A stretch of 64,000 nt of DNA from an uncultured Bacteroidota bacterium (GCA_963714855.1 CAVQPT010000009.1:31438-95437); one strand, 5' to 3'; counted from the first letter of the stretch, positions 1 to 13,438 are shown. Translations and numbers: made by a program. The notes: generated from the letters alone by a model not told the origin.

Positions 1-206
1 TTCTTGTCCTCAAACCATTCCTTCATCGCTTCCGGCTCCTTCATAAGTTCTTGCATATCATTCATGGCTTTCAGATGCGCGGCATCGTTCTTCTGAAACA
101 TCTCCATGGCATGCTGTTTGCTCATCCCAGCAATCTCGTCAAAAGTATTTGCGTGAAATGTCTTGTTACAAGCCCCACCGAGTTGTTTGCAGGTCATAGT
201 CTTCAT
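1..206 (-). CDS. DUF1059 family small protein (likely cassette-borne); ATG at 204-206, coding sequence reaches nt 1 so the stop may lie just outside the window
   Basis: Reverse-strand translation MKTMTCKQLGGACNKTFHANTFDEIAGMSKQHAMEMFQKNDAAHLKAMNDMQELMKEPEAMKEWFEDKK matches the DUF1059 family pattern; GGAGGA Shine-Dalgarno 5 nt upstream of the ATG. Confidence 0.55.
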   Translation of the reverse strand, partial: MKTMTCKQLGGACNKTFHANTFDEIAGMSKQHAMEMFQKNDAAHLKAMNDMQELMKEPEAMKEWFEDK

Positions 207-348
207 ACCGTCCTCCATACTGAGATTCAACATACCGAACGCTCTGCATTATGCGCGGGCTGGGCTGGCGTGGACCGTGCACTCTTGGCACGGCCGTGAC
301 AGAACAGACAATTGCCTGCAAGCGGTTGTTGGGCAGAAGCCCCCGCCG

Positions 349-879
349 TCAGGACCCTCCCTTACCCAACACTCTGGCGATCGCGGTGATGGTGTTCCAA
401 TTGCGTGTGGTGACCGGAACCCCAAAGAGTCGGTCGAGTGTGCCCAGGTAGCCGATAGCCTTCATGTCGCGCCGGTATACGCCGAAGACGAACCGATTGT
501 CCCTCGCGAGGATCTTCAGAAACCACTTGCCGCTGGAAGGAAGGCTCATGGGCGTCGACGGCGCCGAGCGGGGGCGGTTGGACAGGATGCTCACGAAGCG
601 GACGATGCCGGGTCGCGCGGGCTGGTCCGCGAAGTGATCTTGAGACATCAGCCTGACAATCTCGCGGCCCTGGCAGATGATGATCTCGGCATCAAAGGGA
701 AGCCCGCGCACCAATTCGGCGCGCAGTTGCGCCCGGGTGACCGGCCGCCGGATCACAAAGGTGCCCGCCGCGCCGATGTTGACGGCGTCGAGATGCTTCA
801 GTTGTCCGGCCAGCGTCGTAGGTCGGAATGTCCTGTGACCGCCGACGTTGACCCCTCTCAGAAAAACCACGAGTGCCAT
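349..879 (-). CDS. DUF1697 domain protein
   Basis: Internal Met start MALVVFLRGVNVGGHRTF... is the typical DUF1697 N-terminus; the track ORF 349..1113 extends upstream from a GTG with no family similarity there. Confidence 0.7.
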   Translation of the reverse strand: MALVVFLRGVNVGGHRTFRPTTLAGQLKHLDAVNIGAAGTFVIRRPVTRAQLRAELVRGLPFDAEIIICQGREIVRLMSQDHFADQPARPGIVRFVSILSNRPRSAPSTPMSLPSSGKWFLKILARDNRFVFGVYRRDMKAIGYLGTLDRLFGVPVTTRNWNTITAIARVLGKGGS

Positions 880-951
880 GCGTCTCCTCTTGCTTGCGCC
901 GCTCGAGACTGGATCAACTCGGCCACCCGATAATTGATCCACCGTCCCGCG

Positions 952-1003
952 TGAGTGCCTAACGTCCAGCATCGCCGGCAGCGCACAGCGCCGTCCGTTA
1001 CAG
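952..1003 (-). other. short degenerate attC-like site (GCCTAAC ... GTTACAG) downstream of the frameshifted flavodoxin-like cassette gene
   Basis: RYYYAAC motif GCCTAAC at about 952-958; internal GC-rich dyad; TAA stop of the 998..1300 ORF lies inside the GTTAC end. Confidence 0.3.
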
Positions 1004-1690
1004 GCTGTTGTTACCTGGTTGTTCACCGGACCGTTCTGGGCTTTGCTGCGGTCGATTCCGCCGCTCAAGCCCGGAGGCTTTCCGGCCCGCTCTTTCGAAC
1101 TCCGGCATGGCACTCCTCTGCAGGCGCTCGGCTAGATCGAGACAGCGGTCGACCAGGGCGCGCGCACCATCATGCAGGTCTGTGCTGTGCTTGACCATCT
1201 CAACGTTGTGTTCCATGTCCTCCGCTGTCCAGCCGCGGCTGTGAGCAATGAACGGAAACTGGCGAAATTGCATGCCCAGTTCGCCAAAGAATAGCATCAT
1301 CTGTCCTGCGACGGCCTGAATGTTGTCCTGTCCCCCCTGTCACTATGACCCCGGCAACCTTGTTGTTCAGCATGACACGGTTCTTCAGCGTGATCTGGTT
1401 CTGCACCGTGTTCAGACGCTCCGCCATCTTGAAGTACAACGAACTTGCCGAACCCCAGCGGATGGGCGTCGAAACCAGAACGACGTCCGCCCAGAATACC
1501 AGGTTCTCATACACCGCGTGCATGCCGTCAGCCGGTTCCCTCTGTGAGATGCTGCACGGCCAGGTACAAGCCTGTGCACTCTTGGAGTAGTAACCTTCGC
1601 AGGCACACGGATATTCGCAAGGGCGACGCGGACCGTGCTCATTCCGGTACTCCGCTACGGCGTCGCGCCTTGACCAGGCAGATGCGTTTC
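998..1690 (-). pseudogene. flavodoxin-like fold / NADPH-dependent FMN reductase (iron-sulfur flavoprotein-like) gene, disrupted by frameshifts
   Basis: Fragments in two frames: ...HAVYENLVFWADVVLVSTPIRWGSASSLYFKMAERLN... (1200..1523) continuing as ...GELGMQF... (998..1300). The frame change falls at a C7 run near 1305-1315. The upstream in-frame region has a Cys-rich stretch but no start codon. Confidence 0.45.
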
Positions 1691-1723
1691 ATAATAGATG
1701 ACTTTCCTGCGGCCCCGGAGCAT

Positions 1724-2110
1724 TCATTGACCTGCGGGCGGCTGCCAAAGCTCGACCTTGTTTCCCTCCGGGTCGATAACCCAGGCGAACTTTCCGTACT
1801 CAGATTCGTCGATCTTGTCCAGGACGTTGCAGCCCTCGTCCTTGAGAATCTTGACCAGCGCGTGCACGTCCTCAACTCTGTAATTGACCATGAAACTTGC
1901 CGTGCCCGGTGCAAAGGAGTCGCCCTCTGCAGGTCCGATTGACCAGATAGTCGTGCCTCCCACCGCATTGCCTTCCCCGTCCGTCCATGTGAATGCGGCA
2001 CCACCCCATTCTTGGACATCGATTCCGAGGTGACGCTTGTACCATGCCCGTAGTCCCGCGGCATCTTTGGCTTTAAAGAAGATACCGCCAATACCAGTAA
2101 CTCGCCTCAT
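1724..2110 (-). CDS. VOC family protein (glyoxalase/bleomycin-resistance-like)
   Basis: 128-aa ORF with typical VOC signature (GIGGIFFKAKD..., ...WVIDPEGNKVELWQ); GGAGAG RBS upstream of the ATG. Confidence 0.85.
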   Translation of the reverse strand: MRRVTGIGGIFFKAKDAAGLRAWYKRHLGIDVQEWGGAAFTWTDGEGNAVGGTTIWSIGPAEGDSFAPGTASFMVNYRVEDVHALVKILKDEGCNVLDKIDESEYGKFAWVIDPEGNKVELWQPPAGQ

Positions 2111-2136
2111 CGTGCTCTCCTCTCTGTAGTTCCAGG

Positions 2137-2265
2137 GCCTAGCGCCTTGCGATTACCTGCGTCGCCGAAGCAAATCATCCTTCAGTGTGATACTGTGGAC
2201 GCGAGAATCCAGGAACTGATCATTTCCAGAGCTTCGGATGCCATCGGCTCCTTGCTAGTCAATTA
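2137..2265 (-). other. degenerate attC-like remnant downstream of the hydrolase cassette gene
   Basis: The plus-strand 5' end GGGCCTAGCGCCTTGCGATTACCTGCGTCGCCGAAGCAAA resembles the conserved end of the attC family (GCCTAACGGTCGCGCCTTACCTGCGCCGCGAAACGAA); the high-coordinate end is poorly conserved. Confidence 0.25.
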
Positions 2266-3291
2266 CTCGCCGGGCAGCCCAGTCCGGCATCTCTGGAAAA
2301 CGTGGTTCAGGTCGTCCAGTTCGGCCACCATGAAGGCACTATTACCTCCCTCGCGCAACGAGCTTTCAATGGCGACAAGGTGCTCTTTCGCAGGAATCTG
2401 TACATCTTTGCTGCCGTTGATCGCGAGAACAGGGCATTGCACCCGCGTCAGCATGTCCGCCGGATTATCGTCCATCGATTCGAGGACCTGCAGCGATCGC
2501 ATAAATGCGAGATATCCATCCACATTGTCCAGGTGAAAGAGGGTCCTGGATTCTGCACCCATGAAGCTCGCGATCTCTGCAAGGAGCCTTTTTGCTTTTT
2601 CCGTCTCTGAAGCCGACATCGTTTTCCTCGTGTAGAGTGGCCACATCTCATCGTACAACTGCCTGATGCGGACGACATCTCGTTCACCGAACCCCGACGC
2701 CCGTGCGATAGCGATGCTCGATGCGCACGCGAACTCCTTACCCCAGACCCCCGGCGCCGCCATCAACACAATGAATCCCACGTCGGAGGAACGCGTCGCC
2801 ATAGCGGGCACAATCAGCCCGCCCTGGCTGATACCGAGCGCGCCAATCCGCTTGGGGTCTATTGCCTCCTGTGCCTTGAGGAAGGCGATTCCTGCCAGCG
2901 CATCATCGACGAAGTTCTCAATGTCGTACGGCTCGTACTTTCCTCCCGATTGTCCACATCCACGTTTGTCATAACGGATCGTCGCCACGCCATGACGGCT
3001 CAGGTAGTCGGCGATTGTAAAGAACAGGCGATGCTTGCCAACCTGGACGTCACGGTCGTGTGGTCCGGAGCCTGCAACGAGAACAACCGCCGGGAAAGGT
3101 CCAGAACCATTGGGCAGAGTCAGAGTGCCCGCTGGCTGAATCCCATCAATGAAGTTCCGGAAGGTGATCGCTACTTCCTTGTAAGGGGAGCTGGCATCTT
3201 GCTCGGCACAGGACAAGGCCAGTGCACAGAAAGTGACTAAGAGAAGGGCAGTGGGATGTGTCTTCGGACGGAACACGGCCACCTCATCCAA
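2263..3291 (-). CDS. alpha/beta hydrolase lipoprotein (cassette-borne)
   Basis: 342-aa ORF with lipobox LALSC, GxSxG-type hydrolase core (GISQGG); track start is TTG at 3289-3291, only 3 nt from the GTCTAAC core, so the true start is uncertain (GTG at codon 4 or 6 possible). Confidence 0.8.
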   Translation of the reverse strand: MDEVAVFRPKTHPTALLLVTFCALALSCAEQDASSPYKEVAITFRNFIDGIQPAGTLTLPNGSGPFPAVVLVAGSGPHDRDVQVGKHRLFFTIADYLSRHGVATIRYDKRGCGQSGGKYEPYDIENFVDDALAGIAFLKAQEAIDPKRIGALGISQGGLIVPAMATRSSDVGFIVLMAAPGVWGKEFACASSIAIARASGFGERDVVRIRQLYDEMWPLYTRKTMSASETEKAKRLLAEIASFMGAESRTLFHLDNVDGYLAFMRSLQVLESMDDNPADMLTRVQCPVLAINGSKDVQIPAKEHLVAIESSLREGGNSAFMVAELDDLNHVFQRCRTGLPGE

Positions 3292-3294
3292 TCT

Positions 3295-3457
3295 GTCTAA
3301 CGGCTGCGGCTCACCTGCGCCGCGAAACGAATTGGGTCTTTTGAAAACCGCAACGAACCCAAAAAGCCACTGTCAACATCTCCGCGCACCGTGTACTTTT
3401 CCTACGGTCCTTTCCGCCTCCGCACCCACCACGCGGCGTCAGGTGCAACCGTTTGAT
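3295..3457 (-). other. attC recombination site, family A (belongs to the inverted brnTA cassette)
   Basis: Plus-strand GTCTAAC (3295-3301, RYYYAAC) ... CACCTGCGCCGCGAAACG ... CGCGGCGTCAGGTGCAACCGTTTGAT (to 3457); about 85% identical to the elements at 6093-6260 and 7107-7273; lies between two genes. Confidence 0.6.
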
Positions 3458-3467
3458 GGGGGGCATG

Positions 3468-3496
3468 TTGACATTGTATACTAAGCGCCTTACAGT
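3468..3496 (+). promoter_or_regulatory. putative sigma70-type promoter for brnTA (TTGACA-17-TACAGT), would give a nearly leaderless brnT mRNA
   Basis: TTGACA at 3468-3473, TACAGT at 3491-3496, brnT ATG at 3502. Confidence 0.3.
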
Positions 3497-3501
3497 GTCT
3501 T

Positions 3502-3780
3502 ATGGATATCACCTGGGATCCGCACAAGGAACGCAGGCTGCGCAAGGAGCGGGGAATTGAATTCCGCGGGGTCCCTGATTTGATCAGCGACCGTAAGTAT
3601 ATTGCCATCCTGCAGAATCCAAGTCGACCGTCTCAGTTTATCTTCATCCTTCCCTACCACGGCTACACCCATGTGGTACCATTTATCATAGGCAAAGATG
3701 AAACGATTGTGCTAAAGAGCGTATTTCCCAGTCGAAAGTTCCATCAACTCTATGGAAAGACTAATGAAGACGAAGCTTGA
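3502..3780 (+). CDS. brnT: BrnT family toxin (DUF497, RelE-like ribonuclease)
   Basis: MDITWDPHKERRLRKERGIEFRGVPDLIS... matches the BrnT/DUF497 N-terminal signature; overlaps the downstream antitoxin gene. Confidence 0.8.
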   Translation: MDITWDPHKERRLRKERGIEFRGVPDLISDRKYIAILQNPSRPSQFIFILPYHGYTHVVPFIIGKDETIVLKSVFPSRKFHQLYGKTNEDEA

Positions 3781-4018
3781 TGCCGCCGAACTGAGTATCG
3801 AACGCTCTGCTGGCTCCTATCGCCCCGTCTCGTCAAAGGACAGGAAGCACATTGAGGTCATTCTGACCCGCTCGCGCAAAAGCAGGAGCATCACTATTCG
3901 TATTTCTGAACCCACTCTGGCAGAGCTCAAGCAACGTGCTGAACGTGAGGGGCTACCCTATCGAGACCCTCGTCTCGAGCATTCTTCACAAGTATGTAAC
4001 CGACCGCCTCGTGGATGA
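3752..4018 (+). CDS. brnA: BrnA antitoxin (CopG/RHH-like), frameshifted near the 3' end; the conserved C-terminus ...TLVSSILHKYVTDRLVDEEA is encoded in the +1 frame up to about 4064
   Basis: ...ITIRISEPTLAELKQRAEREGLPY then in-frame junk RDPRLEHSSQVCNRPPRG*; the +1 frame from about 3963 reads ETLVSSILHKYVTDRLVDEEAVTKSLRFLRSAE*, which is the canonical BrnA tail. Confidence 0.7.
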   Translation: MERLMKTKLDAAELSIERSAGSYRPVSSKDRKHIEVILTRSRKSRSITIRISEPTLAELKQRAEREGLPYRDPRLEHSSQVCNRPPRG

Positions 4019-4099
4019 GGAGGCAGTCACCAAGTCTCTTCGTTTCCTTCGTTCAGCTGAGTAGTCCCGCGCGCGCTTGTCCACCGCATTACAGTCGTG

Positions 4100-4185
4100 C
4101 CCAATTGATCATGCCCACTCACGGCCGGTTTCAGCGGCGTTGCGGAGCGCAGCGAAGCAGCGACCGCTGCAACCCGTTGTTAGGT
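4100..4185 (-). other. attC-like site of the ADH cassette (divergent sequence type)
   Basis: GTTAGGT core at 4179-4185 overlapping the ADH TAA stop (ACCTAAC on the coding strand); imperfect dyad CAGCGGCGTTGCG...CGCAGCGACCGCTG; low-coordinate boundary not resolved. Confidence 0.35.
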
Positions 4186-5169
4186 TTTGTTACTATGTTC
4201 CACAGTTATTACTACATTTCCTTTCTTGTGCCCTTTTTCAACATAGCTATGGGCCTCGGCAATTCGTTCCAACGGATAGCGTCTATCCATGACCGATTTT
4301 ATCTTTCCCGCCTCAATAAGCCCTTTGAGCTCTTTGAGGAAGACTAGACGCTCTGGAACGGGTCGAAGGCCTGTGGCCGAAAATACGACTTTTTTGTTGC
4401 CAATTTTTGAAGTCCATAGCATTTGGCACATAATTGCAAACGTAGGGGCAGTAGAAAGATAGACACCTTTTTGCGTCAGCGAGCCTTTACAGCGTGAAAA
4501 TGAGCTCTTGCCTACCGTATCAAAAATGGCATCATAGGTCTGGCCGGTTTTGGTAAAATCCTCTTTAGTGTAATTAATTACCTTATCCGCACCAAGAGAT
4601 TTCACCAATTCTAGATTCGTGGTACTGCATACCCCGGTAACTTCCGCCCCAAAGTACTTGGCAAGCTGTACCGCAGAAGTGCCTACCGATCCAGAAGCGC
4701 CATTGATAAGAACTTTTTGCCCGCTCTGAATATTTGCCTTGTCTCTAAGGAAATTCCATGCTGTTAATGCCCCATCACAGACGGGGGCGGCTTCCTCATA
4801 GGTCATATTCGCCGGTTTTATTGCCACCACTCCTTCTTCGGGCAGACATATGTACTCGGCATAAGCTCCAAAATTAATCTCGGTAGATCCAAACACTTGG
4901 TCGCCTTCTTTAAATAGCTTTGCATCTTTGCCTACTGCTTCAATCTCACCGGCTAGCTCAACCCCAAGTATAGGGTTCTTTGGTCTTATGAGACCAGTGA
5001 AAAATCTTGAAATAAATGGGTCACCCTTTCGATTAGCACAGTCACTTGGTGTTGCTGTTGTCGCATATATTTTTATCAGTACTTCGTTGTTCCTGACAGT
5101 AGGTTTTTCTACCTCTTTGAACTGAAGAACATGAGGTGATCCGTATTCTGTGTATACAATCGCTTTCAG
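4180..5169 (-). CDS. zinc-binding MDR-family alcohol dehydrogenase / quinone oxidoreductase, apparent CTG start
   Basis: Track ORF 4180..4896 starts at an internal GTG. The same frame continues upstream as (L)[37 protein letters not shown]... (GroES-like N-domain) with no ATG/GTG/TTG. An AGGAGA Shine-Dalgarno lies 6 nt upstream of CTG at 5167-5169. Low GC (~42%). Confidence 0.75.
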
Positions 5170-5247
5170 GAGTTATCTCCTAATCTGGTTTTGTTTGTTG
5201 TCCATTATTGGAATAGTATACAACAATACATCCTGCAAGCCTGCAAA

Positions 5248-5374
5248 ACCTAAAGGTCGCGCCTTCCCTCGCCGCGAAACGACCGCATAATTGCAAGCGA
5301 CCAACATCTATAACAGACTTTCGTGACGACCCCGATGCCCCAGACGCGGCGTCAGGTACGGGCGCTGGTTAGGT
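5248..5374 (-). other. attC recombination site, family B
   Basis: ACCTAAA...CCTCGCCGCGAAACGACCGCATAATTGCAAGCGACCAACATCTATAACAGA...CCCCAGACGCGGCGTCAGGTACGGGCGCTGGTTAGGT; GTTAGGT core 5368-5374 contains the TAA stop (5369-5371) of the upstream membrane-protein gene; about 90% identical to the 8015-8153 element. Confidence 0.6.
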
Positions 5375-5986
5375 TGCCACCTTTGCTGCCCCCTGCGGAA
5401 ATCCCTTGAACCTCCAAATGACTACGATAATGGCATATATGGAAAATGCAATTGAGAGTACGAGGAAGGTCCATGTAACGAAACCACCTACAGTGAGCGC
5501 AATGTGAAATAGATCACCTCTAAAGCCTGTAGCAAATCCAATGGTTTCACATACTAAGTCAAAAGTCGGTCTCAAACACAGCAACATGAAGAGAAATCCA
5601 ATTAGAAAAGCGTTACGAAAGAGTTTCCGTTGAAGAACGTAAACGCCAATTGCAATACTCACCAGATCGAGAAGGTAAGGTGAGATAGTCATAATCAACT
5701 GGCTCCATTCGTTGGTGACGCCTACTGCTTTGATCCACGCCCCAGCAGTCTCTCCAGCCCAAAACCTGGGAATGAGTTTGACTTCGACAGTCTGAGCACC
5801 AACAAGGTATGCGCCAAGCAGATGGCTCAATTCATGTATAGGCGCGTAGACGAAATACCACAGTATCGGAATGGTAGACATGCACGCCACCATCGTTTTG
5901 GGTTTCCAAGTTCCCCTTAGATAGAGCACAAGAAGGGGAGCAACGACGGTGAAGAGTATTTCGAAAGTGATCAGTAGATGGCTCAT
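5369..5986 (-). CDS. integral membrane protein (hypothetical, cassette-borne)
   Basis: 205-aa ORF with about 6 predicted TM segments; low GC; stop codon embedded in the attC core. Confidence 0.6.
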   Translation of the reverse strand: MSHLLITFEILFTVVAPLLVLYLRGTWKPKTMVACMSTIPILWYFVYAPIHELSHLLGAYLVGAQTVEVKLIPRFWAGETAGAWIKAVGVTNEWSQLIMTISPYLLDLVSIAIGVYVLQRKLFRNAFLIGFLFMLLCLRPTFDLVCETIGFATGFRGDLFHIALTVGGFVTWTFLVLSIAFSIYAIIVVIWRFKGFPQGAAKVAT

Positions 5987-6092
5987 GACATTTTACGGAC
6001 TCCCTTGAGCCTATGTCGTCGATTGGGCAAGAGCCACCAAAGTTACCAAGAATGCACATCTCATGATTGGGGACTCCTCCTTTTTCGCGGCA

Positions 6093-6260
6093 ACCTAACG
6101 GCCCCTCTTCACCTGCGGCGTGAAACGAATTGGGCCTTTTGAAAACCCTCAACGAGTACCCAAGAAGCACCTTGTAACACCACCCCGTCCCTGCACTGTG
6201 CCTCCGGGCCTTTCCACCTCCGCTCCTGCTCGCGGCGTCAAGTGCAGCCGCTGGTTAGCG
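6093..6260 (-). other. attC recombination site, family A (orphan; no intact ORF between it and the next attC remnant)
   Basis: ACCTAAC (6093-6099) ... CACCTGCGGCGTGAAACGAATTGGGCCTTTTGAAAACC ... CGCGGCGTCAAGTGCAGCCGCTGGTTAGCG (GTTAGCG 6254-6260). Confidence 0.55.
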
Positions 6261-6399
6261 TCTCCACCACACCTTCGGCGCGGTTCTTTCCGATACTCGG
6301 CTCATTTTGCACAGGAATCAAGTCGTTCATTGTCAACAGGTTACAATGAGCTGCTTGGGAGGCAGCAACCCGCCGTGAGCCGGTTGGGGAACAACATTC

Positions 6400-6477
6400 T
6401 TGTCCACACCTCCATTTACCGCCGCGAAACTGCAGAAGAGTGCAGGGCCTGACCCCGCCGACCGATTCATTCTCTCA
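6400..6477 (-). other. partial/degenerate attC remnant immediately downstream of the 6475..7071 gene
   Basis: CACCTCCATTTACCGCCGCGAAACTGCAG resembles the conserved CACCTGCGCCGCGAAACG arm; the other arm is missing. Confidence 0.25.
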
Positions 6478-7071
6478 TGCGGATGTGGGGGCTGAATCTG
6501 AGGGATCGATCGCAGGCGTCCTTCGCAACCCCGCCAGCTGTCGGGCTGCTGAAGATATTCCCGCAATCGCAACGCCCAGCATGAACATGGAAGCCGAGCA
6601 TATCGCCATCACGATCAGGAAGATAGTCAGAGCAACATAGCGACCCATCTGAATGATGTACCCGGTGCGCAGATGGAGATAGAGCTTGCCGTGAAGTCCG
6701 CGACGAGCAGCTCTATAGCCCAGGAGATTGCCCAAATGAGTTGTGATCACGATGAGGTATAATCCCCAGACGTAACCGATCAACAGCACACGAAACTCCT
6801 CCGGGATCCACACTAGTCCCAATGCCACAACCACACTAAGAATTGCCGCCGGAACAATATGCCTCGGATCGACGATTCGCCGGGCCAACACCGCCTTCTG
6901 ATACAGAGGGTTTCCTTCAATGGTGTTGATCGGATAACTTTCATAGTGCTCGGAATAGTGCAGTTGACGCTCGCGTTCCTGGCCGATGGTAAGCAACCAA
7001 TCGCTCCACATCAAAAAGAATGTGACGACGCCTGTTACCCAGGGTTGGCCTGCAAACCATTCAATCATCAC
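6475..7071 (-). CDS. integral membrane protein (hypothetical, cassette-borne)
   Basis: 198-aa ORF with multiple TM segments; GAGGTG RBS 5 nt upstream of ATG at 7066-7068 (track start is GTG at 7069-7071). Confidence 0.6.
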   Translation of the reverse strand: MMIEWFAGQPWVTGVVTFFLMWSDWLLTIGQERERQLHYSEHYESYPINTIEGNPLYQKAVLARRIVDPRHIVPAAILSVVVALGLVWIPEEFRVLLIGYVWGLYLIVITTHLGNLLGYRAARRGLHGKLYLHLRTGYIIQMGRYVALTIFLIVMAICSASMFMLGVAIAGISSAARQLAGLRRTPAIDPSDSAPTSA

Positions 7072-7106
7072 GGCACCTCATTAATGGGGTGAGTCAGTGC
7101 ATTGCT

Positions 7107-7273
7107 GCCTAACGGCTGCGGCTCACCTGCGCCGCGAAACGAATTGTGTCTTGTGAAAACCCGAAAAGGGTACCGCAAAAAACCACTGTCAATACGTCCG
7201 CGCATCGTGTACTGTGCCTAAGGTCCATTCAGCCTCTGCACCCGCCTCGCGGAGTCAGGTGCAGACGTTTTTT
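7107..7273 (-). other. attC recombination site, family A
   Basis: GCCTAAC (7107-7113) GGCTGCGGCTCACCTGCGCCGCGAAACGAATTGTG ... CGCGGAGTCAGGTGCAGACGTTTTTTT (to about 7273); the MepA-like gene stops at 7283. Confidence 0.6.
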
Positions 7274-7282
7274 TTTGGCCGC

Positions 7283-7999
7283 TCAGTTATCCATCGTAAA
7301 GTCTATATGATAATGTTCGTCGTGCCGAACCCACGCGGGCTTTGTTGAGAACTTCATGAGACTCGGTAGGTTCTGCCCCCCCTTGGATGCAATGAGATGT
7401 TTCTGCAAAGTGGCGTCGAATATCACGACCTTGATGCCAACGCCGTGCTTCAACGCACTGTCATGAATAGCTTTGAGGTGAGCAGCCATCGCTTCAAAGT
7501 CAATAGAATAGGTCCGAGTCTTTCCCGCTGAATCGAATTCCACCGAATATCCGAACTCGTTGAAAATGTTTGTAGGAAGCACGGTTGGTGTCCCGTCTGC
7601 AGTGTTCACCGGAACCATGAAATCCACGGAAAGTCCATTTTGATGCGTCTTGTGAGGCCAGAATTTTCCTCCGTGAGGCCAACCCGTCTCGCCGTAGACG
7701 AACCTCCGGTGAGGACGAGTTTCCGCAAGCCGGGAGTATGCCTCCAGGATGGTAGCCTTTACCTTGTCGTGAACGCACGTTCGGCCGATGAGACTGCCCA
7801 ACCGAGAATATGTTGTGAAGTTAGGCCCGGACGACGGTAGCCTCTTGGCATTCTCAATTGAGCCGGTCGATGTTGTCCCCCGACTTATACTTGGAGCATC
7901 TGATTCGAATGCGATCAACACATAGTTCCCCCAGCAAACGATCGCAGTAAGTGCCACACTGAGGGCAACCAGTCCGAGAATAACTCGCTTCATCCTCAA
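7283..7999 (-). CDS. penicillin-insensitive murein endopeptidase (MepA / peptidase M74, LAS-type)-like protein
   Basis: 238-aa ORF with signal peptide; motifs ...HQNGLSVDF... and ...WVRHDEHYHIDF... resemble the MepA metal-binding region; track start is TTG, ATG at codon 3. Confidence 0.6.
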   Translation of the reverse strand: MRMKRVILGLVALSVALTAIVCWGNYVLIAFESDAPSISRGTTSTGSIENAKRLPSSGPNFTTYSRLGSLIGRTCVHDKVKATILEAYSRLAETRPHRRFVYGETGWPHGGKFWPHKTHQNGLSVDFMVPVNTADGTPTVLPTNIFNEFGYSVEFDSAGKTRTYSIDFEAMAAHLKAIHDSALKHGVGIKVVIFDATLQKHLIASKGGQNLPSLMKFSTKPAWVRHDEHYHIDFTMDN

Positions 8000-8014
8000 G
8001 AGTTCACATTCCTC

Positions 8015-8153
8015 AGCCTAGAGCGGCCTAACGGTCGCGCCTTACCTGCGCCGCGAAACGAATGCTTAATTGCAAGCAACCAACATCTATAACAGATTAC
8101 GGTGACGACCCCGATGCCCCAGACGCGGCGTCAGGTACAGGCGCTGGTTAGCG
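8015..8153 (-). other. attC recombination site, family B
   Basis: GCCTAAC (8015-8021) GGTCGCGCCTTACCTGCGCCGCGAAACGAATGCTTAATTGCAAGCAACCAACATCTATAACAGA ... CGCGGCGTCAGGTACAGGCGCTGGTTAGCG (GTTAGCG 8147-8153). Confidence 0.6.
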
Positions 8154-8173
8154 CAGCTAAGCCTGTCGTCTCA

Positions 8174-8689
8174 TCAATGATTGGGGTTCAGTGCGTTTGG
8201 CTCGCGACCTATAGCCGCAGCTGTGTCCGGTGGCATGATGAATAAGTAGTCATGGCCCAACGCTCCACCGAAAACTGCGCCGCAAAATCCACCCAACGTG
8301 ATGCTTCCCATCAGAAGGAATCCCTTCCCCATTCTTGCGTCTCCCCCCGATCCCATTCCGGTGCCAGCGACAAGACCGAAGGCAGCGCCACCGAGCCCTC
8401 CCAGCATCATCCCCTCCATCGCGCCACCGCCATGATGTGTCACTCGTACCGATGCGACGTCTCGAGAACAAACAGAAAGCTGACTGTCGCTTCGTGGATC
8501 CGTGAAGCGCGTTGTATCCTCACCAAACATCAAATGCTCGGCTTCAAGGGCTACACCTGAACGAAGCATCAGCACCGCAGAACTTTCCTGAACTTTGTGA
8601 TTCGCGTCCATTGGCGACCGCAAAGGAACTGTCGTCGTGCAACCTGATGCAAAGATGCACACGAAGACCACGAGCACAATTTGTCTCAT
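8174..8689 (-). CDS. glycine-zipper lipoprotein (hypothetical)
   Basis: 171-aa ORF; lipobox ASGC; Gly-rich membrane-associating segment GLGGAAFGLVAGTGMGSGG; GAGG RBS 5 nt upstream of the ATG. Confidence 0.55.
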   Translation of the reverse strand: MRQIVLVVFVCIFASGCTTTVPLRSPMDANHKVQESSAVLMLRSGVALEAEHLMFGEDTTRFTDPRSDSQLSVCSRDVASVRVTHHGGGAMEGMMLGGLGGAAFGLVAGTGMGSGGDARMGKGFLLMGSITLGGFCGAVFGGALGHDYLFIMPPDTAAAIGREPNALNPNH

Positions 8690-8711
8690 GCCGGCCTCAT
8701 CAATCTGCCAC

Positions 8712-9215
8712 CTATTCCAACAGTACGCCCGAGAGTTTCAGCGACAAGTACACTCTCGAATCGCCCCTCTTGTCGATTGCGCCGTTCGCCAGTTGAATCC
8801 TGTAGGGAAGCGGCGCGATCGCTTCGATCACAGCACATGCAGGAGGCATGCTTGAAGAATATGCCCACCAGAATGTCCCGAGATAGATACGATCGTTCCC
8901 GACGGTTACCACGAAGGGGACACCGCGTGTTGTTCCATGTGCCAATAGAAACTGCTCATATAGTGCACGCGCACTCTGCATAAGTGTAAAGGCATGCGTT
9001 GACCAGACATAGGAGTTCAGGTCATGGACGTCCAAGAGTGCTGAGTCGGCCAAGGCCAAGCTCCCGATCGGTTGCGAGAATGCATCGTTTGCGGTTAGTG
9101 TCGAGTCCCTTAGAAGATAGATTGCGAAAGAGCCTTCCGGGAATTCCTGATCTGACGTTGGGAAAGGGCACGCGAACAAAAGCACCGAGCATGAGATGAC
9201 GACGATGTATTTCAT
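8712..9215 (-). CDS. lipoprotein (hypothetical), first gene of the attI-proximal two-gene cassette
   Basis: Internal ATG (9213-9215) gives MKYIVVISCSVLLFACPFP... (lipobox) with a GGTGGAG RBS; the longer track ORF 8712..9425 would overlap the intI start and the attI core. Confidence 0.5.
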   Translation of the reverse strand: MKYIVVISCSVLLFACPFPTSDQEFPEGSFAIYLLRDSTLTANDAFSQPIGSLALADSALLDVHDLNSYVWSTHAFTLMQSARALYEQFLLAHGTTRGVPFVVTVGNDRIYLGTFWWAYSSSMPPACAVIEAIAPLPYRIQLANGAIDKRGDSRVYLSLKLSGVLLE

Positions 9216-9247
9216 GGCAATCTCCACCGAGTTCAATCGAGGCTGCC

Positions 9248-9412
9248 GCCTAACATTTAGTAGGTTATAAATTGAGATCGAAAGTGCTGGGGTTGTTGTG
9301 GTATATGTTTGCGTGTAGTCCGCTTGAGGGGCGGGAAATACTGCGCGCTGACAACGATGTGCCCCACACGAGAGGGATGGGCTGCGAGTAATTCCAAGAA
9401 TCCACCGCGACA
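9248..9412 (-). promoter_or_regulatory. putative attI site and divergent Pc/PintI promoter region
   Basis: GTTAGGC core (plus-strand gcctaac 9248-9254) about 33 nt upstream of the first cassette gene's start; AT-rich stretch between the first cassette and the intI ATG at 9413. Confidence 0.35.
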
Positions 9413-10134
9413 ATGCCACCACCAAAACTCCTCGACCAAGTCCGTACTACCGCCGCCCTCCGACACCTCAGCCCCCGAACTATAGAAGCATATGTCCAGT
9501 GGATCAAATGATTCGTTCTCTTTCATGACAAACGACACCCACTCGAAATGGGCGCACCAGAAATCCATACGTTCCTCTCGCACCTCGCACAAGCCCTCAA
9601 CGTCTCGGCGTCGACCCAAAATCAAGCCCTCAATGCGCTTGCATTCCTCTACCACCAAGTCCTCAAACGTACGCTTGGCGAACTCGGAAACCTCCCCCGC
9701 ACCAAGCGGCAAAAACGCCTCCCCGTTGTCTTTTCCCCGGCTGAGGCGCGACAGGTTCTCTCCTGCCTCACCGGCGTCGAAAACCTCATGGCATCCCTCC
9801 CTACGGGTCAGGCCTCCGCCTCACAGAATGCATCTCGCTTCGCGTAAAAGACATCGATCTCGACAAACACCTGATCCTTGTCAGACAGGCTAAGGGAGAA
9901 AAGGATCGAGTCACAATGCTCCCCCACAGTATCTTGCCAAGCCTCTTCCGTCAGCTCGAAACCGTCAGGGAAATCCACCACCGCGATATGCTCGATCAAT
10001 ACGCCGGCGCTACATTCCGGGAATCTCTCGAACGAAAGTACCCCAATGGACCACGAGAGCTCGCCTGGCAATACCTGTTCCCCGTCCTCACCAAAGGTGG
10101 CCTGGCTGTCCGAAGCCCGCTGGATGAACCGTGA
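9413..10134 (+). pseudogene. intI: integron integrase intI remnant: in-frame TGA, frameshift, and internal deletion of the catalytic region
   Basis: MPPPKLLDQVRTTAALRHLSPRTIEAYVQWIK*FVLFHDKRHPLEMGAPEIHTFLSHLAQALNVSASTQNQALNALAFLYHQVLK...RLPVVFSPAEARQVLSCLTGVENLMAS / frameshift / PPYGSGLRLTECISLRVKDIDLDKHLILVRQAKGEKDRVTMLPHSILPSLFRQLETVREIHHRDMLDQYAGATFRESLERKYPNGPRELAWQYLFPV-LTKGGLAVRSPLDEP*. This aligns with IntI1, including the IntI-specific ALERKYP segment. About 85 aa carrying box II and the catalytic Tyr are missing. Confidence 0.8.
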
Positions 10135-10659
10135 GTAGCAGTGGTTGTGATACATGGAGGTTCCCCCCGGGAAAGGTCTGTACCACCCGCCGGTCAAAGT
10201 TCGACGCCTGACTGTTGCAGAAATATAGAGATGATTCAGCGGCTTGTCAAGACCACCACCCGGGAAGCCCTGGCAGAGAAGAACTGACAACCAGATGCAC
10301 CTTCGCACTCCTCCTGTATATCGCCGTCAAGATTCTTCTGACAACTCCGACCTGTGCTTGCTGCTGCAATTTGCCTTTGCGTTTCTCCCCCATTCCAAGT
10401 ATCTTGCTGCGTAACGATCGTGTTCGCAAGGAGCCCCCGGTTCTTCCGTGTATCATGTCCCTCGAGCCCTTCAAGTCCGGCAAACTCATCGCCGAACTGT
10501 AGAGGGAACCCGGCCTCACCCATGTCATCACGCTGGCATCCAACGAGAACCCGCCCGGGGTAACCCCGCATATACAGACGCCCCCGGCGGGGACATGCTC
10601 CCGAAGAACGAAGGACTCTTGTGATCGGACGCCCGATCCTCTCATCGAAGGAAGAGATC

Positions 10660-12839: not shown

Positions 12840-13015
12840 ATCCTACTGTTCTCTCCCGCTGAAACCGGCCGGGATGATACTGCGGGGTATCCTTGAAACA
12901 ACAATCCAAGACGATGAATATACCAAAAAAGTCAAAATCTTGCAACCTGACAACAAGAAAGGGAACGGCACCACGGTTGTCGTCCATGGTGCCGTCGTTT
13001 GCTATCAATACCGTG

Positions 13016-13089
13016 TCGGGGCGACAGGATTTGAACCTGCGACTTCTTGCTCCCAAAGCAAGCGCTCTGCCGGGCTGAGCTACGCCCCG
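13016..13089 (-). tRNA. tRNA-Pro (anticodon TGG)
   Basis: Reverse complement CGGGGCGTAGCTCAGCCCGGCAGAGCGCTTGCTTTGGGAGCAAGAAGTCGCAGGTTCAAATCCTGTCGCCCCGA. Confidence 0.85.
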
Positions 13090-13438
13090 AAACTTACTTC
13101 CGACACCCTCTCTACATGCTACAACTCTTGAACCCAGCAGTATTTCTGGACCTGTAACTTTGGCGCCAAAGGCGCCACGCTCTGCCGGGTCCGTTCCCGC
13201 AAAAGGCGGGAACGCGACTCTCGTCTCCGCCACAGGCGGAGACGGAGCTGAGCTACGCCCCGAAACTTACTTCCGACACCCTCTCTACATGCTACAACTC
13301 TTGAACCCAGCAGTATTTCTGGACCTGTAACTTTGGCGCCAAAGGCGCCACGCTCTGCCGGGTCCGTTCCCGCAAAAGGCGGGAACGCGACTCTCGTCTC
13401 CGCCACAGGCGGAGACGGAGCTGAGCTACGCCCTGAAA
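13075..13438 (-). repeat. tandem direct repeat, 173-bp period, 2 full copies plus a partial third; each copy begins with the 5' 15 nt of tRNA-Pro
   Basis: Copies 13075-13247 and 13248-13420 are near-identical, and 13421-13438 repeats the start; this explains the duplicated ORF fragments 12802..13233 and 13119..13406. Confidence 0.8.

Follow-up and report, generated by a model that had tools for sequence, protein, structure and literature searches.

Long repeats of two families are very probably attC sites of a chromosomal integron in an Ignavibacteria-lineage bacterium

Introduction

In a 64,000-nt stretch of DNA from an uncultured Bacteroidota bacterium (the window, meaning the whole stretch analysed), five long repeats with complementary ends lie between open reading frames. 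A sequence-only reading had taken them for attC sites of two families, A and B. This raises the question whether they are attC sites and, if so, how two families came to stand in one array. We give a probability of about 0.9 to the reading that all five are attC sites and belong to the chromosomal integron of a bacterium of the Ignavibacteria lineage. The sites are unusually long, and otherwise an ordinary member of a known system. The host lineage is suggested by sequence comparison, because named relatives belong to Ignavibacteria and an Ignavibacteriota MAG carries cassettes that are 95-97% identical.

Results

The repeats and their array

All five repeats are present, and the coordinates first given for A1, A2, A3 and B1 are right. 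The start of B2 had to be moved from 8015, which fell on unrelated GCCTAGAG, to 8026 (GCCTAAC at 8026-8032). Family A (A1, A2, A3) measures 163-168 nt and family B (B1, B2) 127-128 nt. The two-arm pattern CGCCGCGAAACG..CGCGGCGTCAGG occurs three times in the window, against 0.00 expected from 100 shuffles. The array and its surroundings, with the sites named according to the attC reading, are as follows:

9413..10134, plus strand: integron-integrase pseudogene (TIGR02249)
9249..9266, plus strand: attI core block CCTAACATTTAGTAGGTT, start of the array, which extends leftwards
8712-9215, minus strand: cassette ORF
8174-8689, minus strand: cassette ORF
8026..8153, plus strand (bottom strand on plus): attC B2, of the attI-proximal cassette
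7283-7999, minus strand: cassette ORF, Peptidase_M74
7107..7273, plus strand: attC A3, 167 nt with a 111-nt loop, of the M74-peptidase cassette; lesions present
6475-7071, minus strand: cassette ORF, membrane protein
6093..6260, plus strand: attC A2, 168 nt, of the membrane-protein cassette 6475-7071
5369-5986, minus strand: cassette ORF, membrane protein
5248..5374, plus strand: attC B1, 127 nt, of the membrane-protein cassette 5369-5986
4180-5172, minus strand: cassette ORF, Zn dehydrogenase
4110..4185, plus strand: short attC of a different class, of the zinc-dehydrogenase cassette; left end approximate
3502-4018, plus strand: toxin-antitoxin pair, BrnT/CopG-like, the only cassette ORFs off the minus strand
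3295..3457, plus strand: attC A1, 163 nt with a 107-nt loop, of the inverted BrnT/BrnA-like toxin-antitoxin cassette
2263-3291, minus strand: cassette ORF, alpha/beta hydrolase
about 2138-2262, plus strand: degenerate sixth attC, of the alpha/beta-hydrolase cassette (family D2, 65%)

The identity of 85-90% claimed within each family was confirmed for family B (89%); in family A it is lower, at 71-83% (A1/A3 83%, A1/A2 74%, A2/A3 71%). Between the families identity is 52-59%, and they share more than the terminal arms and ends to which their likeness had been confined: GAAACGA, a CAAC motif and a CCCCG/CCGCG motif near the 3′ end of the loop are common to both. Nor do the families strictly alternate, as had been suggested, since the order from attI is B2, A3, A2, B1, the short site and A1. 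Sites of this kind had been placed at the long extreme for attC. Measured against the descriptive range of 57-141 bp (PMC5371416), this holds for family A, which lies outside it, but not for family B, which falls within it and inside the usual range of chromosomal integrons.

The array is mixed, with three A-type, two B-type and several short or degenerate sites, where a sedentary chromosomal integron typically has more than about 10 attC of homogeneous sequence. At least 8-9 sites lie in the window, and the array passes its left end (L001); the locus is flanked by housekeeping genes and tRNAs. The long sites, placed at the 3′ ends of their cassettes, separate minus-strand ORFs, next to the attI block and the divergent integrase remnant. 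The latter matches TIGR02249 with E=1.9e-76 over profile positions 1-221 of 315, and it is interrupted by an in-frame stop near 9509 and a frameshift near 9810; the catalytic C-terminal half is lost to an internal deletion that spares the last 15 codons. The best intact relatives of the remnant, 72% identical, are annotated integron integrases of Ignavibacteria MAGs, and three related loci (L054, L055, L056) have a conserved copy of the attI block upstream of intI. A tblastn search with the remnant, covering the rest of the window and the first 31 loci, found no intact intI.

Anatomy and folding of the sites

Along the plus strand the general plan of the long sites is GCCTAAC, a spacer, 6 bp, an extra C, 6 bp, an extra T, a 7-bp GC stem, the loop and a closing GTTAGG. 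The arms had been described as differing by one extra base. There are in fact two on the 3′ arm of the plus strand, a T and then a C 6 bp further out, and in addition the spacer is asymmetric and partly unpaired (GGATC on the 5′ side, TG on the 3′ side). A consensus fold of 72 sites has 25 conserved arm pairs, namely a 5-bp R box, a G-T pair and then 6 + 6 + 7 bp. Several arm variants are compensatory: CACCTG/CAGGTG is replaced by CACCCG/CGGGTG and by TACCTG/CAGGTA, and GCGGCT/AGCCGC by GCGCCT/AGGCGC.

These features agree with what is known of attC sites. The ends conform to RYYYAAC ... GTTRRRY, the consensus of 143 related sites being CCTAAC/GTTAGG, and the T and C stand opposite the AAC arm with the 6-bp spacing described for attC (PMC7439510). 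Extrahelical bases opposite the AAC arm mark the bottom strand (PMC5027507), and for this reason we assign the plus strand as the attC bottom strand. Predicted folds thus contain both the extrahelical bases and the R/L box spacing, the lack of which had been named as evidence against attC. In place of the G that is typical of the first extrahelical base (PMC7439510), these sites have C; the second base is mostly T, but A, G or C in some related sites. The residue aligned with W157 of VchIntIA is R in a related integrase, as in IntI1, and is uninformative on the C base.

By analogy with the established attC mechanism, the plus strand would be the recombinogenic bottom strand and would fold into a hairpin as single-stranded DNA, running inwards from the R box (CCTAAC/GTTAGG) through spacer, 6 bp, extrahelical C, 6 bp, extrahelical T and the 7-bp all-GC stem to an open loop, which would form the variable terminal structure. 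An ORF and its own attC would then move together as one cassette, by excision and reinsertion. The terminal loop is large and unpaired (67-111 nt overall; 107-111 nt in family A, about 68 nt in family B), and a hairpin with such a loop should form more slowly. In predicted folds the top strand is more stable than the bottom strand by 1.5-6 kcal/mol, the reverse of the average mobile-integron site (PMC5027507). The loop of the bottom strand is C- and A-rich, a feature also described for chromosomal-integron attCs (PMC5371416).

B2 is the only long site in the window with the full consensus geometry. Its minimum free energy fold shows the R box, both bulges (C and T) and the 7-bp GC stem; its pfold, the probability that the 13-bp L stem forms, is 0.87; its ends are GCCTAAC/GTTAGCG; and it is 96% identical to one attC of an intact integron (L054). 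A1 has a perfect inner stem, a 3′ spacer that is 4 nt short and ends GTCTAAC/GTTTGAT, with a pfold of 0.24. In A3 (pfold 0.19) there is one stem mismatch (CGCGGAG), and the ends are GCCTAAC and GTT followed by a T-run and GGCCGCTC, where the other cassette end predicts GTTAGGCCGCTC. A2 and B1 have lost the consensus attC fold. A2 retains intact R boxes and ends ACCTAAC/GTTAGCG; its L stem has three mismatches, the arms are absent from the minimum free energy fold and the pfold is 8e-5. In B1 the conserved AAC is changed to AAA and the 5′ L arm is damaged (pfold 0.003). The degenerate site at 2138..2262 has a B-like 5′ arm (CCTAGC..TACCTGCGTCGCCGAA) and an unrelated 3′ arm. Lesions are thus found in four of the five long sites, consistent with a dead integrase. 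The integrase in cis is dead and these lesions hit essential positions; unless the array is served by an integrase from elsewhere in the genome, it is therefore probably frozen and in decay.

Relatives and cassette ends

Ignavibacteria/Bacteroidota MAGs and metagenomes yielded about 170 distinct sites with the same arms and at least five loop types. Chance matches (L006, L013, L031, L035, L041, L043, L044, L046, L051) were left out of the scans. An intact intI, which it had been suggested to look for in relatives, is present in L054, followed by 11 sites, all of B type (11/11), with one ORF between each pair. Array BIN5 has mostly M-type loops, and L040, from an unrelated metagenome, carries an intact 167-nt A-type site with 72-73% identity to the A copies of the window. 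L009 has structured insertions in the arms, giving sites of about 260 nt, and one site of the same class lies on a 177-kb Terriglobia contig (L019). A single match on a viral contig was discarded as chance; it lies within coding sequence and has no R boxes.

In the relatives, the exact run from GTT that an outer repeat shares with the far end of its own cassette has a median of 13 nt (n=104); with the adjacent flank the median is 6 nt (n=139). This contrast is the footprint of G|TT crossover. Cassette-specific bases lengthen the R box to 12-13 bp. In the window, the outer repeat GTTAGGTTGCC of B1 (outer end GTTAGGT) matches the far end of its cassette at A2 over 11 nt, TTAGGTTTTG of the short site 4110..4185 (outer repeat GTTAGGT at 4179-4185) matches its far end at B1 in 10/11 positions, and A3 to B2 match over 8 nt; for the A2-to-A3 cassette the match is only 5 nt. 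The window cassette 6399-7142 recurs at 95-97% identity behind a different attC in an Ignavibacteriota MAG.

With ends, extrahelical bases, the ORF/attI/intI context, an intact intI in a relative and the crossover footprint all in agreement, the attC reading stands. Lookalikes such as REP- or MITE-like palindromes, RNA-level terminators or structured non-coding RNAs have in their favour that the repeats are GC-rich dyads in intergenic positions, that a hairpin could also form in top-strand RNA and that A2 contains one terminator-like match. However, the hairpins are not followed by T-runs; Rfam searches of the whole window with gathering thresholds and of 1-10200 with E<=1 returned only three tRNAs outside the array; and relatives with arm insertions gave only noise. 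Outside the arms neither structure nor covariation was seen, and no copies were found away from cassette arrays; the covariation of a non-coding RNA, also named as evidence against attC, is missing. All copies lie in arrays with one ORF per unit, which in the window and in L054 adjoin intI and attI; on viral contigs no true copy was found. The RYYYAAC/GTTRRRY ends, and a cassette-specific complementarity that changes partner exactly at GTTAGG, likewise contradict a chance resemblance, which we regard as largely refuted and of very slight probability.

Conservation of the loops

Within a type the loops are 82-89% identical, although their parent cassettes are unrelated, and GAAACGA, CAACCAAC and ACCCCG recur across types. 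In consensus folds, whether of all sites together or of one loop type at a time, only the arms paired and no loop structure was conserved. Four A-type sites share a weak TTGGG..CCCAA hairpin with one wobble-compensated pair, too little to count, while in type D loops a small inner hairpin TTGCC..GGCAA covaries with CTGCC..GGCAG. A 51-aa ORF spanning A1 was considered and rejected, as it is not conserved in A2 or A3. The loops are thus strongly conserved in sequence yet unstructured, for which shared descent is the sole account that we can offer.

The loops of these attC sites might also be functional modules, serving as a site for a host factor or integrase accessory, as a transcription or translation signal for the cassette next to them, or to tune folding and, through it, cassette stability. 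Their identity between unrelated cassettes, the motifs shared across types, the covarying type D hairpin and the influence of loop length on folding from double-stranded DNA (PMC5027507) are compatible with this. We nevertheless consider it unlikely. No loop type has a conserved structure, a sigma-70 scan detected no promoter within the long sites, and Bacteroidetes-style -33/-7 motifs, inspected by eye, vary between copies. The arms (near 100%) are more conserved than the loops, as expected if selection acts on the arms only, and high attC identity is already a general, unexplained property of chromosomal integrons (PMC5371416). A wider proposal, unlikely in our view, is that the sites form a distinct attC class, with near-invariant arms, C for the extrahelical G, interchangeable long unpaired loop "cartridges", a dedicated integrase clade and exchange across Ignavibacteriota and possibly Acidobacteriota (L019), the conserved loops and the insertions in L009 being functional. 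If so, these parts could, for example, allow folding only in replication or transformation intermediates, or be bound by a host factor.

Origin of the two families

Sequence comparison indicates that related genomes carry at least five loop types on common arms, A and B being two of them, and most likely each type marks the lineage in which the cassette was made. Of the two explanations offered earlier, separate cassette origins are favoured, because arrays elsewhere are dominated by a single type (L054, BIN5) and window cassettes recur beside different attCs; for homogenisation no direct evidence was found. Duplication and gene conversion within the array, instead of import, would fit the 83% identity of A1 and A3 and the general homogeneity of chromosomal arrays (PMC4889954). 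Yet both types exist elsewhere, B throughout L054 (with B2 96% identical to a site there) and A in L040, and the A copies, at 71-83%, are no closer to each other than to L040 (72-73%). As window cassettes also recur in other arrays, we think it quite improbable that the families arose in place.

Discussion

Among the closest parallels to the sites are the attCs of sedentary chromosomal integrons, such as the Vibrio cholerae repeats (VCRs, 120-129 bp). In both, the bottom strand forms a hairpin that has R and L boxes, a spacer left unpaired, extrahelical bases 6 bp apart opposite AAC (PMC5371416, PMC5027507) and a GC-rich apical stem, and is rich in C and A. Sites of one lineage are about 80-90% identical, each unit has one promoterless ORF, and intI and attI stand at one array end. 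Unlike VCRs, the window sites have C as the first extrahelical base, an open loop of 67-111 nt without conserved pairing in place of a complex branched terminal structure (PMC5371416), an R box extended to 12-13 bp by cassette-specific bases, a length of 163-168 nt in family A and several loop types on one near-invariant arm pair. With class 1 mobile-integron attCs (attC-aadA7, attC-aadA1) they share the RYYYAAC/GTTRRRY ends and two extrahelical bases at 6-bp spacing. In the present class 8 nt separate the first extrahelical base from GTT, as likewise in attC-aadA1. Mobile-integron attCs are mostly <100 bp and sequence-diverse, with purine-rich bottom strands (PMC5371416), whereas the sites described here are long, homogeneous and C/A-rich.

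Complete integrons in Ignavibacteriae have been mentioned (PMC9024848), and the Ignavibacteriae/Chlorobi integrons reported by IntegronFinder come from the same host group. In the literature searched we found no description of this attC class with its arms, loop types and extrahelical C, and none of the 11 taxon-specific attC models in PMC8352920 covers this host group.

The window probably shows an integron caught in decay, its integrase broken and most of its sites damaged. The sites extend the known attC anatomy beyond Proteobacteria: the extrahelical pair at 6-bp spacing and the G|TT crossover have been kept in Ignavibacteria, while the identity of the base (C for G) and the total length have not. 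Surveys that filter by the classical range of 57-141 bp would lose family A. The default upper attC limit of IntegronFinder is 200 nt, and the variants of about 260 nt in relatives exceed even this. Since length limits lose these sites, cassette content in the Ignavibacteria lineage may be under-counted, and the arm sequence provides a simple search pattern for recovering such arrays from metagenomes.

Organisation of the integron locus

The repeats A1, A2 and A3 (family A) and B1 and B2 (family B) represent one class of attC sites in a chromosomal integron, and elements of this kind are known. That five long repeats lie between minus-strand ORFs was borne out when the window was read directly and analysed with a repeat finder. 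The start of B2, which had been placed at 8015, was about ten bases too early and is corrected here. Three occurrences of the paired arms CGCCGCGAAACG..CGCGGCGTCAGG were counted in the window, and none in 100 shuffles.

Features of the integron locus
3295-3457, attC A1, 163 nt
5248-5374, attC B1, 127 nt
6093-6260, attC A2, 168 nt
7107-7273, attC A3, 167 nt
8026-8153, attC B2, 128 nt
9249-9266, block CCTAACATTTAGTAGGTT, putative attI upstream of the integrase remnant
9413-10134, plus strand, integron-integrase remnant with in-frame stop, frameshift and internal deletion

The sequence-only reading had given 85-90% identity within families. This applies to family B (B1/B2 89% globally), while family A is looser (A1/A3 83%, A1/A2 74%, A2/A3 71%). 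Between A and B the global identity is 52-59%, and what they have in common is not restricted to the terminal arms and ends, as had been assumed, since short loop motifs are common as well.

The internal deletion of the integrase remnant has removed the catalytic half and kept the last 15 codons. The translation of the remnant, once reconstructed, has a match to NCBIfam TIGR02249 'integron integrase' (E=1.9e-76, profile positions 1-221 of 315), with additional matches to Pfam Phage_int_SAM_4 and Phage_integrase. Among intact proteins, its best relatives have 320 aa, share 72% identity with it and are annotated as integron integrases of Ignavibacteria. The block at 9249-9266 is conserved before the intI of three intact relatives and we take it to be attI. 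From the remnant and this conserved upstream block, the order of the locus is a dead intI, attI, and then a leftward cassette array, which extends past the left end of the window, as seen via the related contig L001.

Between 2263 and 9215, every ORF of cassette size is on the minus strand, with the sole exception of a BrnT/CopG-like toxin-antitoxin pair (3502-4018, plus strand). This is the only cassette that is inverted relative to the array, and a good sigma-70-like promoter (TTGACA-17-TACAGT, 3468-3496, plus strand) is located directly upstream of it.

Structure of the attC sites

By definition from the arm with the extrahelical bases, the plus strand is the attC bottom strand, which is consistent with the orientation of the ORFs and of intI. 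In the consensus of 72 sites (5′ to 3′), the first arm is GCCTAAC / GGATC / GCGGCT / CACCTG / CGCCGCG; the loop then follows, and after it CGCGGCG / T / CAGGTG / C / AGCCGC / TG / GTTAGGC. There are 25 conserved pairs and the apical stem is purely G-C. The unpaired extrahelical bases and the box spacing expected of attC are present in the consensus fold, with eight nucleotides between the first bulge and GTT and with two bulges 6 bp apart, a spacing that is reported to matter for IntI1 (PMC7439510). The first bulge has C in place of the typical G (PMC7439510), and in the second T predominates, with A, G or C in some sites. Arm pairing is kept by compensatory variants, CACCTG/CAGGTG being replaced by CACCCG/CGGGTG or TACCTG/CAGGTA, and GCGGCT/AGCCGC by GCGCCT/AGGCGC.

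Beyond the apical stem, the loop has 67-68 nt in family B and 107-111 nt in family A. On the bottom strand it is rich in C and A, as reported for chromosomal-integron attCs (PMC5371416). A structure of the ncRNA type outside the arms, which had been raised as an alternative, did not emerge from consensus folding: whether all sites, each loop type or the four A-type sites were folded, only the arms paired. Rfam searches gave no match to the sites, even at E<=1, and no sigma-70-like promoter was found inside the long sites. On these grounds we regard the loops as variable terminal structures, the conservation of which reflects common origin. Such a pattern of loop conservation is general, and still unexplained, in chromosomal integrons (PMC5371416, PMC4889954). 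A function of their own is possible but less likely.

Relatives and loop types

A two-arm scan of one genome per species gave about 75 true sites, nearly all from three Ignavibacteria/Bacteroidota MAGs, and one from a Terriglobia contig. Additional sites were recovered when metagenomes were scanned for longer versions. Relaxed matching resulted in 172 distinct cores with at least five loop types on common arms, with a within-type identity of 82-89%.

Loop types of the attC cores
M, 74 distinct cores
C, 36 distinct cores
B, 35 distinct cores
D, 11 distinct cores
A, 4 true members (6 cores in the class defined by length, two of them artefacts)
Other, 10 distinct cores

Family B of the window has the B loop type. 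Family A has one relative outside the window, an intact 167-nt site in contig L040. An intact intI in a relative, proposed earlier as a check, was found on the 471-kb contig L054, where it encodes one of the 320-aa integrases mentioned above. It is preceded by 11 B-type sites, with strands arranged as in the window. Each of these flanks one minus-strand ORF, and one L054 attC is 96% identical to B2.

A lone site in a MAG with the label Terriglobia (Acidobacteriota), on a contig of 177 kb (L019, 7101-7253), has the same arms and a D-like loop, which points to either cross-phylum spread of the site class or a binning error. On a contig of the Ignavibacteriota MAG MFD00032.bin.2.15 (L029, 4398-4803), an attC of about 60 nt abuts only the C-terminal half of intI (..HTFRHSFAT..THVLTKGGLAVRSPLEEP*), the reciprocal of the window remnant, which has the N-terminal half and the last 15 codons.

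Recombination footprint and cassette mobility

If cassettes move by G|TT crossover, complementarity is expected between an attC's outer repeat and the far end of the cassette to which it belongs; in a linear array, this end adjoins the next attC. Exact matches counted from GTT in the relatives have a median length of 13 nt against the far end of the own cassette (104 cassettes) and of 6 nt against the flank next to the site itself (139 sites). In the window, the end match is 11 nt for the B1-to-A2 cassette and 10/11 for the cassette from the short site, an attC of a different class (4110-4185), to B1. For the A3-to-B2 cassette it is GGCCGCTC, after a T-run which replaces the A of GTTA. The window cassette at 6399-7142 recurs in an Ignavibacteriota MAG with 95-97% identity, behind a B-type site instead of A3, and two others have relatives (71-82%) in the arrays of the MAG BIN5.

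Between A2 and the ORF at 6475-7071, this cassette contains a remnant (6405-6470, CACCTCCATTTACCGCCGCGAAACTGCAG..ACCCCGCCGACC) that resembles an internally deleted attC and is common to L029; two cassettes may have been fused here. The contig L001, which comes from a different sample, shares 98.4% identity with window positions 1-2113. The two diverge (L001 1-120, window 2111-2262) at a point 3 nt before the start codon of the glyoxalase gene and not at a GTTAGG cassette boundary, and there the L001 sequence is preceded by a different attC. Canonical cassette exchange does not account for this breakpoint.

Probable decay of the array

With DNA energy parameters, the computed probability that the 13-bp L stem forms (pfold) is 0.87 for B2 and for four L054 sites. 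It is 0.24 for A1, where the 3′ spacer is 4 nt short, and 0.19 for A3, where the outer repeat is lost to the T-run. B1, in which AAA stands in place of AAC and the 5′ arm is damaged, has a value of 0.003, and A2, with three stem mismatches, of 8e-5. As the integrase is broken, we infer, as the simplest reading, that the array is decaying. The GC skew, negative over the entire window with no origin in view, weakly suggests that the leading-strand template carries the bottom strands, the arrangement found in most chromosomal integrons (PMC5371416).

Following the glyoxalase gene, a flavodoxin/FMN-reductase-like ORF (998-1523, minus strand) is split across two frames; it is a pseudogene, because L001 has a single 241-aa gene. 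At 13074-13434, a segment of 173 nt is duplicated exactly and in tandem (13074-13246, 13247-13419). Each unit has three GC-rich hairpins. The duplication opens with the initial 16 nt of tRNA-Pro (13015-13089, minus strand), and a third, partial copy of the tRNA-Pro end is found at 13419-13434.

Comparison with known attC sites

Integrons have already been reported in Ignavibacteriae (PMC9024848); we found no description of this particular attC class in the searchable literature. The sites differ from textbook attCs in the C as first extrahelical base, in their very long unpaired loops, in the length of family A (163-168 nt, versus a quoted range of 57-141 bp; PMC5371416) and in having several loop types on one arm pair. 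None of these four departures alters the mechanism.

Some attCs of BIN5 carry a 28-nt hairpin insertion (TCGAAGATCCCGCCGTCTTTTGGCGGAG) within the 3′ L arm (L009 4905-5165 and 3960-4215, minus strand; also L009 3340-3490, L011 and L047), and some also have a multi-hairpin insertion of about 85 nt in the 5′ L arm. Rfam gave no match for the insertion-bearing attCs. The two insertions pair with each other. The resulting sites, about 260 nt long, are predicted to be well folded (z = -4.5) and would surpass an attC size limit of 200 nt.
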